Virus record (IMG/VR): IMGVR_UViG_3300037418_003103
Length of the DNA stretch: 64,000 bases
DNA from: a virus
Taxonomy: Duplodnaviria > Heunggongvirae > Uroviricota > Caudoviricetes
Reading direction: 5' to 3' (one strand)
Part shown: one piece after another, positions 2,424 to 24,722 of the stretch
Layout of the letters: every line of letters starts with the position of its first letter
Position numbering within the stretch: the first letter of the stretch is position 1
Notes under the pieces: generated by a model
Told to the model about the DNA's origin: nothing
The model's database searches: none
Seen by the model: only the letters and a program-made list of their open reading frames with translations
Made by a program: the position numbers and the translations under genes

Positions 2424-3485
2424 TTAGTTAATATAGCAATTTAATTCATACATGTTTCCCATGTTATACACTTGAATTTCGAGAGCCTTCTTTTTAACAG
2501 GAAGGCCATCCTTAAACAAACCAATGCTGTATTTATTAGTCTCGCCATTCTTTGGCTTAGGATTACCCATAGTTATATCTCGGCTCCATTCATCCTCATC
2601 GATTGTGTATCCATTTTTAAGAGCAAAATTTTCAGCTTCTTGAACAGCAGAACTAAATGTATTATGATAAACTTTATAATCATTATTTTTCATTTTGAGT
2701 TCATCAACAATTTCTGCTTTTGGCCTAGGTTTAATACCAGGATGAATCTTGGGTTGAAACGGCCTATTTCTTCTAGTGGGCTTAACCTGGGGTTGAACTG
2801 ATGGTTTTATACTAGGTTTTATTTTAGGCTCTATAGTTGGAGTATCCATATTATCCATAAATGATTCTTGTAATTTAGTTTTGATGATATTTTTGAACTT
2901 TGATTCTTCTGAACCTTTAGGAGCAAAAATACTTAATTTTTTTGGTTTAACAAATAAACTATTAGATTCAGCTAGATTACTATCATCGTTAGTATTTACT
3001 GGCTCCATGTCATCAAGATTTGGTTCTGAATTATTTACAGGTTTATCTTCTGAGTTATGTGAATCTTCTGACTCAGAATCGCTACCAGATTTTTTAATTT
3101 TGTTGATTATATCATCTTGATCCTGCTGATCCATTTCAGAAGTATGGGATGCCGCAACTACTGAATTGATTGCAAATTTTTCTAATTTAAAGTCAGGCTG
3201 TGGCTGTCCATCATTATATTTACGTAATGATTGCCCTAATTTACCTGATAATTGCTGAATAAACTTTTTTGGATCAGTACTTTCATCAGCATCTACGCCA
3301 GCATCAAACGGAGCCTTTTCAAATGGTTTATCTGATTTAGGCTCTTCGGATGGAGTTGTGTTTATCTCTGGCCCAGCGTTTTGCTGAGGAGCGGCCTGCG
3401 GTTGAGTTGGAACTGGATTATTTGCAGGCAGCTTTAATTTATAAGTAGTCTCGTTTATTTTAGAGTGTAAACTTTTTTTTTTGGC
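2424..3485 (-). CDS. C-terminal part of a probable frameshift fusion protein (Pro/Gln-rich linker plus globular domains)
   Basis: Frame of the 2424..3134 ORF stays open for 117 more codons up to 3485 with no ATG/GTG/TTG (SLHSKINETTYKLKLPANNPVPTQPQ...DPKKFIQQLSGKLGQSLRKY...); it is the -1 frame of 3455..4105 across an A10 run. Confidence 0.75.
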   Translation of the reverse strand, partial: AKKKSLHSKINETTYKLKLPANNPVPTQPQAAPQQNAGPEINTTPSEEPKSDKPFEKAPFDAGVDADESTDPKKFIQQLSGKLGQSLRKYNDGQPQPDFKLEKFAINSVVAASHTSEMDQQDQDDIINKIKKSGSDSESEDSHNSEDKPVNNSEPNLDDMEPVNTNDDSNLAESNSLFVKPKKLSIFAPKGSEESKFKNIIKTKLQESFMDNMDTPTIEPKIKPSIKPSVQPQVKPTRRNRPFQPKIHPGIKPRPKAEIVDELKMKNNDYKVYHNTFSSAVQEAENFALKNGYTIDEDEWSRDITMGNPKPKNGETNKYSIGLFKDGLPVKKKALEIQVYNMGNMYELNCYIN

Positions 3486-4105
3486 TTAACTATACTTTCA
3501 ATGATACTATCTAAGTCATCAAGAGATCTTCCAATAGAGAGTTTATGCTCTTTGATAGCCTCAGGTACATCGTCTTCTTTTTCTTCTCCTGTGATCAGAT
3601 CTTCAACAGCCTGTTGTTCTTCTGACAATTCTTCGTCTTCTACTTCAGTAACTAACGGATCATTTCCTTCTAAATTACCTTCATTGCTAAACCCGTTCCC
3701 CTGATACTGCTGAAAAGAAGCAACATCCTCTCCAATTATATCGTTTTCAAAAACGTTTATATCTTTATATTCTCCCAGGGATTCAGAGATGCTATTAAAT
3801 TTAATATTAAGATGCCTTAATGCTTTTGCATAAGTAGGATAAGCTTCTTGCATTTTATTTTGCAATCCGCCAATATATTTAAAATCTTCAGCAATCAAAC
3901 TATTGTGCTTATCAGTAGTTTTAATGAAGTAAGTGTGATTTTCTCTTACAATGCCATAAACCAGCCCGTCAGGACCAATTTTAGTTAATTCAACAGATGA
4001 AGAATGATGTTCTTCATTTATTGGTTGTAATTTCATTAACTCCTTAATTCTATCATTGATTTCATTCCCCTTCAATCCAACTGGTTTAACTATAATACGT
4101 TTCAT
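3455..4105 (-). CDS. Hypothetical late protein (N-terminal part of putative -1 frameshift fusion)
   Basis: 216 aa ORF ending PKKKVYTLK*; GATATTTATA at 4124-4133 upstream. Confidence 0.8.
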   Translation of the reverse strand: MKRIIVKPVGLKGNEINDRIKELMKLQPINEEHHSSSVELTKIGPDGLVYGIVRENHTYFIKTTDKHNSLIAEDFKYIGGLQNKMQEAYPTYAKALRHLNIKFNSISESLGEYKDINVFENDIIGEDVASFQQYQGNGFSNEGNLEGNDPLVTEVEDEELSEEQQAVEDLITGEEKEDDVPEAIKEHKLSIGRSLDDLDSIIESIVKPKKKVYTLK

Positions 4106-6043: not shown

Positions 6044-8533
6044 ATGAAAACTATGAAAAATAACAGCGTATCCTCCTCACTTAAGCTGATAGTTAATAAC
6101 GCTAAAGAAGAGGCAGAATTATTTGGAGACTCTAAGGTTAGGCCAGAGCACTTGCTACTTTCTATCATACATGCAAATGATCCCAGGTGTGCTTCAATAT
6201 TTGAAGCATTAAAAGTAGATACCTCTTACTTATATGACAGAATTAGCGACGCTTTAATGAAGGCCGATTTAAATACTAGAGTGGGAAATAGAAAAGACAC
6301 TATGTTGTTTTCCTCAGAAACAAAATTAGTGTTTAAAGGAATAGATAAGGAATGTGAGTATTTGAAAGATAAATCAATAGAATCTACGCATTTGTTTTTA
6401 TCAATTTTAAGTATTAAATCTCCTTTAAGTATAATGCTATTTGAAATGGGCATTAGTTATATGATGGTAAAGAATTGCATTAAATCTATTAGGTCAGATG
6501 TAACTAACGGCGTAACTAATGAAGATTTTGATGATAACCAATTTAGTAAGCCCGCTAAAAGAACATCAAATAAAACGGTTGTGTTGGATAATTTTTGTAG
6601 AGATATTTCAGCCGCAGTAAAAAATGGTGAAGTAGACAAAGTAGTTGGAAGAAAAGCGGAGATTAAAAGAGTCGCTCAGATTTTATCAAGAAGACGCAAA
6701 AATTCCCCTGTTTTAATTGGCGTCGCAGGATCTGGTAAAACAGCTATTGTAGAGGGACTAGCTCAATTAATAAATAACGGAGAAACGCCAAGAACTCTAA
6801 TAGGAAAAAGAATTTTATCTCTGGATCTTGCAGCTATGGTAGCTGGTACTAAATATCGCGGTCAATTTGAAGAGAGAATGAAAGCCGTAATGGAAGAGTG
6901 TAAAGGTAATAAGGATGTCATTTTATTTATTGATGAATTGCATACTATGGTTGGGGCTGGAAACTCATCTGGTTCTATGGATGCTTCTAACATACTTAAA
7001 CCAGCTCTATCACGAGGTGAAATTCAAATTATCGGCGCAACTACCTTAGATGAATATCGTGAAAACATAGAAAAAGATGGGGCATTAACCAGAAGATTTC
7101 AGCAAGTTTTAATACAGGAGCCGTCACTTAAAGAAACTATTACTATTCTTTCACAAATTAAAGACAAGTATGAAAAACATCATAATGTTTTTTACACTGA
7201 TGAGGCTATTGAGGAATGTGTTAAACTAGCTGATAGATATATTATGGATAGAGCAATGCCAGACAAAGCAATTGACGTATTGGACGAGGCTGGCGCAGCA
7301 ACAAATATGAATATAGAGAAATCAGAAAAATTAAAAAATCTTGAAATAGAAAAAGAAAAAATTGCACAGAAAAAAGTTGAGGTGGTTGCAAAACAAAGGT
7401 ATGAAGATGCAGCTAAATTAAGAGATGAAGAGAAAAAAATTGAGGCTATTCTAATTGAGGCGACAAAGGAATGGAACACACTTCTAAGTAAAGAAGTAAA
7501 GATCGTAGATGCTACTCTAGTTTCAGAAGTTGTGTCTAATATGACAGGAATTCCCTTATCTAAAATTTCTGTACAAGAAACCAAAAAATTAGTAAACTTA
7601 GATAAGGAGCTTCAAGAGAAATTAATTGGCCAAGATGAAGCGGTGACCAAGGTTGTTAAAGCCATAAAAAGAAGCAGGGTTGGAATTAAAGATAAGAATA
7701 AACCAGTGGCTTCTTATATATTTCTAGGGCCAACAGGGGTTGGTAAAAGCATGCTTGCTAAATTAATTGCTGAATACGTTTATGGGGATGCGGATTCATT
7801 AGTAAGAATGGATATGAGCGAGTATATGGAAAAATTCTCAGTATCAAGACTCATAGGCCCACCTCCAGGGTATGTAGGATATGAACAGGGAGGACAGTTA
7901 ACTGAAAAAATTAGAAGAAAACCATATAGCGTAATACTATTTGATGAAATAGAAAAAGCCCATGAAGATGTTTTTAACCTTCTGCTTCAACTATTAGATG
8001 AAGGCCAGTTAACTGATGGGCTTGGAAGGAAAGTTAACTTTAAAAATTCTCTAATTATTCTCACATCAAATGTTGGTGTTTCCGAATTAAATAGTTTTGG
8101 AAAAACTATGGGATTTGAAACCCCTTACGAATCAGCTAATCAAGAAGAAAGAAATAAATCAATAATCGACAAAGCTTTAAAGAAAAAATTTAAACCTGAA
8201 TTCCTTAACAGGATTGATGAAGCAATAGTTTTCAATAGTTTATCTGAAGAAAATATTCACAAAATTATTTACTGTGAAGTTGCAAAGTTAGAAAAAAGGC
8301 TTAGTGAGATAGGATATAAAATCAAGCTGAGTGAAACAGCTTTGAATTACATAGCTAAGAATGGATACGATAAGAAATATGGCGCAAGGCCACTTAATAG
8401 AGCTATTCAACGTTATGTAGAAGATCCTATTGCCGATGAAATATTAAATGGTAAAATTAAAGAGGGAGAAACCATTAAAATAAATTACGATGAAAAAAAT
8501 GATATCATAAGTGTCACATCATCTAAAAAATAA
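6044..8533 (+). CDS. clpC: ClpC-type AAA+ chaperone / Clp protease ATPase subunit
   Basis: Clp N-domain; Walker A GVAGSGKT and GPTGVGKS; LFIDELH and LFDEIEKAH Walker B; short UVR-like M-domain ([12 protein letters not shown]). Confidence 0.93.
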
Positions 8534-24152: not shown

Positions 24153-24722
24153 ATGAAAAGCAAAATAAGTTCATTATTAAGTGGTGCAGAACATGAAAAA
24201 TGGGTAAAAAAAAATCTTAATACACCAATAAAAGTAGCTAATAACGATTTTGTCTTGGGACTTCTTTGGGGCGAAATTATATGGAGATCCTTGCTATCAA
24301 AACATACATCTGGTTACAATTTAATAAATCTTCCTCTTACTGAAGAGGAAAGAGAAAAAGAAAATATACTTAATAAAACGTGGCTTGATGGTTACTTCGC
24401 CTTAAAGGCAAATATGACCGCCGAAGAAAATGATTTATATAATAAATCAAAAGCTTTATTTAAAGATTATAGGAGTTATGCAAAATCTATTAGTATTAAG
24501 TATCTGCCTCATGCTTTAACTTATACAGATAGGGTTATATGGAGGCCTAATGATATTAAAGAATTCTTTAATGGCATTGAAACATTTTTATGGAATACAG
24601 ATATGTGCGAGTATTCATTTACTGAAAAAGACATTGTCATTACTGAGGAAAGATTATTTAGAGTTTATGAGCTAACAATTGCGTTTACACTTTCAGATTT
24701 AAAAGAATCAAATGGAGACTAG
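24153..24722 (+). CDS. Hypothetical protein
   Basis: 189 aa ORF, first of the + strand block. Confidence 0.7.
   Translation: MKSKISSLLSGAEHEKWVKKNLNTPIKVANNDFVLGLLWGEIIWRSLLSKHTSGYNLINLPLTEEEREKENILNKTWLDGYFALKANMTAEENDLYNKSKALFKDYRSYAKSISIKYLPHALTYTDRVIWRPNDIKEFFNGIETFLWNTDMCEYSFTEKDIVITEERLFRVYELTIAFTLSDLKESNGD

Follow-up and report, generated by a model that had tools for sequence, protein, structure and literature searches.

A conserved poly-A run as a very probable programmed slip site joining two overlapping frames of a giant T4-like phage gene

Genes that yield a short and a long protein through slippage have been described in bacteria, mobile elements and phages. The tau and gamma products of dnaX arise in Thermus thermophilus by RNA-polymerase slippage on an A9 run, and in Escherichia coli by a ribosomal -1 frameshift on A_AAA_AAG (Atkins et al. 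2016, PMC5009743). Poly-A tracts are also found in tssM1 of Citrobacter rodentium (A11) and in tssM3 of Yersinia pseudotuberculosis; in tssM1, the long form is regained at about 20% through mRNAs with added A's, and both length variants are needed in C. rodentium (PMC4256274). In insertion sequence (IS) elements, orfA-orfB fusions are produced via slippage on A9 runs (Baranov et al. 2005, PMC1088944), and -1 frameshifts operate in gpG/gpGT of phage lambda and in other tail-assembly chaperones (reviewed in PMC5009743). Here we analyse a site of this kind in a 64,000-nt stretch of DNA (hereafter the window) from the IMG/VR virus record IMGVR_UViG_3300037418_003103, namely a run of ten A's (A10) where two long open frames overlap. 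A first-pass annotation, made from the sequence alone, had proposed that a programmed -1 frameshift or slippage on this run gives isoforms of 216 aa and about 560 aa. The conserved layout, the length of the run and the position of start codons support this proposal, and we consider the A10 run to be very probably a programmed slip site, whose mechanism is of a known kind.

The window corresponds to the reverse strand of bases 100,530-164,529 in the 345,454-bp record, which has direct terminal repeats, is rated complete, contains 33% G+C and is the genome of an uncultivated giant T4-like phage. On the minus strand of the window, frame A (open reading frame (ORF) P0001, 3455..4105) starts with an ATG at 4105 and ends with a TAA at 3457-3455, encoding a short product of 216 aa. 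Its 3' end reads CCA AAA AAA AAA GTT TAC ACT CTA AAA TAA, with the A10 run at 3473..3482 (minus strand) and the stop (3455..3457, minus strand) 15 nt 3' of it. The run is read as CCA AAA AAA AAA GTT in frame A and as GCC AAA AAA AAA AGT in the -1 frame, hereafter frame B. The latter is closed by a TAA 3 nt 5' of the run (3486..3488, minus strand), opens directly after it and continues for 353 sense codons to a stop at 2426-2424 (P0002, 2424..3485, minus strand). The two flanking stops limit any frame change to positions 3455-3485, and the frame-A stop overlaps the conserved I-N-E codons of frame B. Standard decoding would give the 216-aa protein, ending five codons 3' of the run, and a fraction of expression shifting to the -1 frame within the run would give a 560-aa fusion. 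The latter is predicted to comprise 211 frame-A residues followed by 349 C-terminal residues supplied by frame B, with the junction …SIVKPKKK-SLHSKINETTYKLKL…. The position of the run before the frame-A TAA, the opening of the -1 frame after the TAA at 3488-3486, its course to 2424 and the lack of ATG, GTG or TTG in its first 117 codons had all been annotated at first pass and hold in the sequence; the start-codon scan places the first such codon, an ATG, at 3134 (codon 117, counted from 0). Scans for sigma-70-type promoters and intrinsic terminators between frames A and B returned nothing above chance.

Among the 27 A/T runs of at least nine bases in the 345-kb genome, the A10 run at 3473-3482 alone connects two long open frames (an upstream one of 212 codons and a downstream one of 352 in the genome-wide scan), the others being located at gene starts or ends. 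One of these, an A9 run at 24206-24214 of the window (plus strand), lies about 18 codons into a 189-aa ORF (24153..24722); a slip there would truncate the product, as the -1 frame stops two codons 3' of the run, and runs of A9 or more are otherwise rare inside the genes of this phage. A further A10 run, outside the window at genome positions 174601-174610, lies 3 codons inside a 618-codon open frame, near its 5' end; this frame carries a match to the gp23-type major capsid protein.

The layout of the window recurs across the relatives of this gene. Database homologs of frame B number 602, and 250 IMG/VR loci were matched. Protein-guided IMG/VR searches provided 36 loci and then 80 of these 250, and two NCBI metagenome-assembled genomes (MAGs) were added via an identical-protein look-up, giving 84 loci after the removal of duplicates, of which 78 contain both halves of the gene. 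Identity to the N-terminal region of frame B of the window (residues 1-135) ranges from 31 to 76% across these 78 non-redundant loci, and frame-A homologs (43 loci, alignment A2) are 37-58% identical. The first-pass annotation had looked to homologs for the same split with an A run, and this is what we observed: the second half lies in the -1 frame in 74 of the 78 loci, in the +1 frame in none and in the same frame as the first half in four. A run of A9 (9 loci), A10 (59), A11 (4) or A12 (1) fills the frame overlap in 73 of the 74 split loci, within a window of 16-55 nt from the upstream frame-B stop to the frame-A stop, the latter being placed 3 nt after the run in 33 loci and 15 nt after it in 24. 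As all run lengths from 9 to 12 occur in the -1 configuration, length differences are compensated by the flanks and do not represent one-base miscalls. A maximum-likelihood tree of two conserved domains shows that the split-with-run state spans the whole family. Departures from it include L026 (run at 4004-4013 of its contig) and L031 (3999-4008), in which an A10 run occurs with both halves in one frame, so that a slip would yield the short form in place of the long one; close relatives of both were searched for and none was found, leaving them as singletons. In another locus, L032 (3902-3929), the -1 layout is kept without any A run, and an in-phase G_GGT_TTT directly precedes the TAA.

Compared with the described systems, the phage gene resembles dnaX in that short and long proteins with a common N-terminus would result from a slip on an A-rich site, and in that either a long A run or a heptamer is used within one family, here A9-A12 in 73 lineages and G_GGT_TTT in L032. 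By contrast, the in-frame product of dnaX is the long one and the slip gives the short one, an order which is reversed in the phage gene except in L026 and L031. The protein families are also unrelated, and the window lacks two elements of E. coli dnaX, namely a stem-loop at stimulator distance and a Shine-Dalgarno (SD) sequence upstream. Citrobacter tssM1 shares with the phage gene a poly-A tract located just before the stop of a truncated ORF, and Yersinia tssM3, whose tract is in frame and whose slip gives the short form, differs in this from Citrobacter tssM1 and mirrors L026 and L031; however, tssM is a bacterial secretion-system gene described in two species, whereas over 70 divergent lineages have retained the phage head-region site. 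The likeness to the IS orfA-orfB fusions resides in overlapping ORFs with a conserved A run of at least nine in non-identical homologs, which is the criterion for functional use in PMC1088944. Here, the -1 layout is combined with an A9-A12 run in 73 of the 78 non-redundant loci, although the phage gene is neither a transposase nor a mobile element. Finally, lambda gpG/gpGT is, as presumably is the phage gene studied here, a morphogenesis gene with overlapping frames and with short and C-terminally extended products at a fixed ratio, but it relies on a G_GGA_AAG-type heptamer instead of an A10 run, and stands between the tail tube and tape measure genes and not upstream of terminase and portal; no sequence or profile match to chaperone families was found for either half of the slip-site gene (Pfam and PHROG, at the thresholds used).

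The codon usage of the family indicates that the run is maintained. AAA represents 80% of the 5,584 Lys codons in the family's genes, and outside the junction KKK is encoded entirely by AAA in 2 of 38 cases, versus about 19 expected, while the junction run is uninterrupted in 73 of 73. The rarity of all-AAA KKK elsewhere, together with the intact run at the junction, thus shows that long A runs are avoided except at this position. The same avoidance signature was used by Baranov et al. to argue that slippage-prone runs are costly unless used (PMC1088944).

Furthermore, conservation in frame B begins directly after the Lys codons, with the pattern …KKKSL..[LIV]NE.TKYKLK[LV]… in an alignment of 20 diverse frame-B N-termini (A1), where E12, L17 and K18 are invariant. 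In the window, this conserved motif reads I-N-E-T-T-Y-K-L-K-L (3429..3458, minus strand), that is [LIVM]-x-E followed by YKLK[LV], and lies upstream of any frame-B start codon. Among 63 distinct sequences, the Y-K-L-K codons vary synonymously (TAT/TAC, AAA/AAG, TTG/TTA/CTG/CTA/CTT), while hardly any change is seen at their second positions, and none at those of the Leu and of the second Lys. The -1 frame is therefore under purifying selection at the coding level from the run onwards. In addition, two divergent lineages (L027/L028 and L038/L039) encode the whole protein in one frame, without a run, and read through the same motifs. Taken with the conservation of frame B and with its unconserved starts, detailed below, these single-frame lineages indicate that the long protein is the ancestral reading.

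Three explanations that dispense with a programmed slip have to be weighed against these observations. If the true run were A11, miscalled during assembly or sequencing, the gene would be one ordinary ORF, and homopolymers are indeed error-prone on some sequencing platforms. However, the A10 is found in five assemblies: besides the window, the comparison that the first-pass annotation had called for, A10 versus A11, covered a separate IMG/VR contig from another metagenome (L002) and Logan contigs from four sequencing runs of four studies, which carry the same A10 without indel at word depths of 8-19, and no A11 was met. Three of the four Logan samples may be the source of the window and one is not flagged as such. 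An error would further require that 73 divergent lineages, with runs of 9, 10, 11 or 12, were each miscalled by exactly one base, and it accounts neither for L032, split without any run, nor for L026 and L031, in frame with an A10; we give it practically no credence. Homopolymer tracts are also classic switches of phase variation, in which replication slippage would alter the length of the run in the DNA and individual genomes would encode either the short or the long protein, and the singletons L026 and L031, with an A10 run and both halves in one frame, speak for this reading. Yet 74 of 78 lineages have the -1 state as their consensus and none has the +1 state, the -1 relation is kept at every run length from 9 to 12, and the contigs of all four runs carry the same A10, even if contigs do not reveal minority length variants. 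Such DNA-level variation thus appears very unlikely.

The two frames could alternatively be two separate genes, with translation of the second beginning at a non-canonical start codon or resuming through re-initiation past the frame-A stop. This is how gene callers annotate public MAGs, with a second gene starting at the TTG of K-L-K or at other internal TTG or GTG codons. By contrast, the first ATG, GTG or TTG of the window is codon 117, inside the most conserved domain, and across loci the first possible start varies from codon 4 to codon 117, whereas homology starts at codon 0-3. The independent downstream start that the first-pass annotation had named as contrary evidence is accordingly not conserved. 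Residues located before the candidate starts are under coding selection and single-frame homologs exist, leaving the two-gene reading with only slight probability.

As regards the machine that slips, slippage of the host RNA polymerase is, by a modest preference, our candidate for the main route: the polymerase would slip on the ten-T template tract and add one untemplated A, and ordinary translation of the resulting A11 mRNAs would produce the fusion. Part of this product may come from a ribosomal -1 slip on A_AAA_AAA, and both machines may act together, the polymerase being the more likely main contributor. This preference derives from the length of the run, the scarcity of the most shift-prone heptamer, the lack of a stimulator at the usual distance and the bias of slippage towards added bases. 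The run never falls below nine A's in any run-bearing lineage, while a ribosomal heptamer requires seven, and nine is the length at which many bacterial genomes show selection against slippage-prone runs (PMC1088944). A_AAA_AAG, the heptamer tied to high frameshifting in E. coli (PMC4066793), is in phase in 5 of the 73 run-bearing loci, and the run begins at all three codon positions (57, 14 and 2 loci). On such runs, slippage in bacteria yields mainly insertions (PMC5009743; PMC4256274), in keeping with the universal -1 layout. In the window, no stem-loop occurs at the stimulator distance of 5-9 nt and no SD-like element upstream of the run. The 33 nt that follow the run contain no stable fold, the segment 3440-3490 reaching -1.5 kcal/mol (z +0.22 versus shuffles), and the GUUUA/UAAAC hairpin that the first-pass annotation had placed after the run is thus not stable.

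Several observations weigh against a polymerase-driven route and are those expected if the same site and the same products depended mainly on ribosomal -1 frameshifting, or sliding, on A_AAA_AAA, with a uniform A10 mRNA. The window and each of the 73 run-bearing loci have an in-phase A_AAA_AAA of the X_XXY_YYZ type, with the frame-A stop 1-5 codons beyond the run, an arrangement compatible with ribosomal frameshifting. SD-like 4-mers are found 6-10 nt upstream in 27 of 70 loci versus a background of 19%, an approximately twofold enrichment; most of these 4-mers are GAA GGN codons shared by related lineages, and in some lineages they might stimulate the ribosome weakly. In L032, G_GGT_TTT replaces the run, and the family motif LSERKVLKV follows in frame B ahead of any start codon. 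On the tree, this lineage is placed within a clade in which the other members carry A9-A10 runs (Shimodaira-Hasegawa-like approximate likelihood-ratio test (SH-aLRT) 96-99). Because five T's do not suffice for slippage of the polymerase, a slip of the ribosome explains L032 better, and its nested position suggests that a purely ribosomal site has taken the place of the run, with the moderate weight of a single contig. Its relative L036 contains TTG GGT TTA AAA AAA AAG TAA, with tandem in-phase heptamers ending in A_AAA_AAG TAA. In addition, the phage encodes no tRNA-Lys, hence the run would be decoded by that of the host. Against a mainly ribosomal route stand the minimum of nine A's where seven would be enough, the five in-phase A_AAA_AAG among 73, the lack of structure 5-9 nt downstream and of an SD-like element in the window, and hairpins that start 22-102 nt after the run in relatives. 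We therefore consider it a possible but tentative alternative. The slipping machine, the ratio of the two products and the need for both are inferred.

The alignment of the junctions also brought to light inverted repeats 3' of the run. Across 73 loci, the mean folding energy of 36-nt windows falls to -11.6 kcal/mol at the position of YKLK[LV], against -1 to -7 kcal/mol elsewhere in the 540 nt scanned on each side, and an equally G+C-rich stretch just downstream of the hairpin reaches only -5 to -7 kcal/mol. The stems are wholly different in sequence between lineages while their pairing is kept (for instance GCTGGTTCA/TGAACCAGC, GCTGGTACA/TGTACCAGC, GGGGCT/AGCCCC, GCCTGCA/TGCAGGC and GGGTAG/CTACCC), and among the differences are paired changes by which both encoded residues are replaced. 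Native palindrome folds average -14.4 kcal/mol versus -7.0 for synonymous recodings of the same peptides (median z -2.9, with 63% of sequences below -2), and the palindrome is under selection. This evidence comes from per-sequence folds and recoding controls; RNAalifold found no consensus structure on the ungapped alignment, where the stems stand at differing registers. In the window, the palindrome (3390..3433, minus strand; AGC.GCCUGC / GCAGGC.GCU) folds into an interrupted stem of 9 bp that closes a 24-nt loop and starts 39 nt beyond the run, at -13.6 kcal/mol (z -2.96), and counterparts lie at 3040-3084 in L050, 1146-1190 in L071 and 5995-6039 in L042. As it starts 22-48 nt after the run, or 91-102 nt in a subfamily with an insertion (five cases), a role as a standard frameshift stimulator is excluded. 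The antisense strand folds with the same stability, so that the palindrome may function at the RNA or at the DNA level. Each of the four single-frame lineages has a weak version, whose best 36-nt window reaches -3 to -7 kcal/mol; a tie between this weakness and the absence of the split is suggestive, although one of these lineages shares the weakness with its split sister clade.

The encoded protein appears modular. AlphaFold2 models built on family alignments show in frame A a folded N-terminal domain (residues 13-110, with a predicted local distance difference test (pLDDT) score of about 75-92), followed by an acidic disordered linker and by a helix (191-206) just before the run. The most conserved part of frame B (3084..3326, minus strand; residues ~54-134 in alignments A1 and A3) contains the stretch KPF..PFDAGV..DPKKFIQQL.GKLGQSLR..LEKFAINS and three helices predicted at modest pLDDT (72-89, 99-112 and 120-133). 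A C-terminal alpha/beta domain (2427..2678, minus strand; residues 270-353 of P0002) is modelled with confidence (pLDDT 92-97), and long acidic or Pro-rich disordered linkers connect the modelled parts. Neither half matched Pfam or PHROG at the thresholds used, the longer relatives match only PHROGs of unknown function, and profiles of both halves matched none of the PDB sequences. The Atlas look-up returned unnamed viral clusters only, and the BFVD fold search uncharacterised phage proteins only. For the N-terminal model, the best PDB hit of Foldseek had an E-value of 0.18 and nothing usable was found among AFDB clusters. For the C-terminal domain the best score was Z 5.1, and candidate relations to cystatin/PAS-like folds or to phiKZ gp131 (Z 4.6) were rejected, all these scores being below the level that would indicate more than a common arrangement. 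In cultured phages (blastn and tblastn against 50,697 phage records), only the C-terminal domain was matched, by a hypothetical protein of Methylophilales phage Melnitz isolates.

The slip-site gene belongs to an ordered neighbourhood comprising a ClpB-like ATPase, a KTSC protein, thymidylate synthase, an 81-aa gene, the slip-site gene itself, three genes of unknown function, the large terminase and a T4-type portal, and this order is kept in two NCBI assemblies (372 kb and 238 kb). In the genome of the window, genes for a gp21-type protease (Peptidase_S77 at genome position 172.6 kb, 82.9 bits) and for a gp23-type capsid protein (Gp23 at 174.8-176.4 kb, 206 bits) follow 10-14 kb further on. 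The ATPase is a full-length double-AAA+ protein of the ClpB/ClpC type (829 aa, window 6044-8533, plus strand); its gene adjoins those of the KTSC-domain protein and of a long (343 aa) thymidylate synthase, a neighbourhood also kept in L041 and L042. Elsewhere in the genome, ARAGORN predicts 15 tRNA genes, none for Lys and two with odd anticodon loops, most of them clustered at 332.8-337.5 kb, outside the window.

On the basis of gene position and composition, a role as a prohead-core or internal protein may be proposed. The label of late virion protein given at first pass is not supported beyond gene position. [LIVM]-x-E is a known type of site for the T4 prohead protease. Of 20 sequences, 19 have such a motif after the junction, and a second one, I-N-E31, is present in 38 of 43 frame-A sequences; eight [LIVM]xE motifs are conserved in frame A, some of them inside the folded domain, and in this Glu-rich protein they are frequent, which makes processing at these sites no more than a lead. 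A more specific and rather improbable scenario would be a packaging device comparable to Gag/Gag-Pol. An abundant 216-aa core or scaffold protein would be accompanied by the rarer 560-aa fusion, which would enter the prohead via the shared N-terminal domain and carry the frame-B part with it at a fixed ratio. The gp21-type protease would then cut at the [LIV]-x-E after the junction, freeing the frame-B part inside the capsid, and the palindrome, belonging to the same cassette, might control the fate of the message or of the ribosome downstream of the frame-A stop.

A full-text literature search found no paper on a slip site in this gene family. With 73 divergent lineages, 250 IMG/VR loci and 602 database proteins, it is among the most widely conserved A-run recoding sites that can be documented. 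Public annotations split the gene into two "hypothetical proteins", the second with a misplaced start, and recognising the slip site corrects the annotation in hundreds of giant-phage genomes. The family also offers a natural series for work on slippage efficiency, with runs of 9 to 12 A's, a variant that is in frame, a lineage whose run is replaced by a heptamer, and a palindrome occurring alongside. Finally, it suggests that the head module of giant T4-like phages opens with a pair of proteins made at a fixed ratio.

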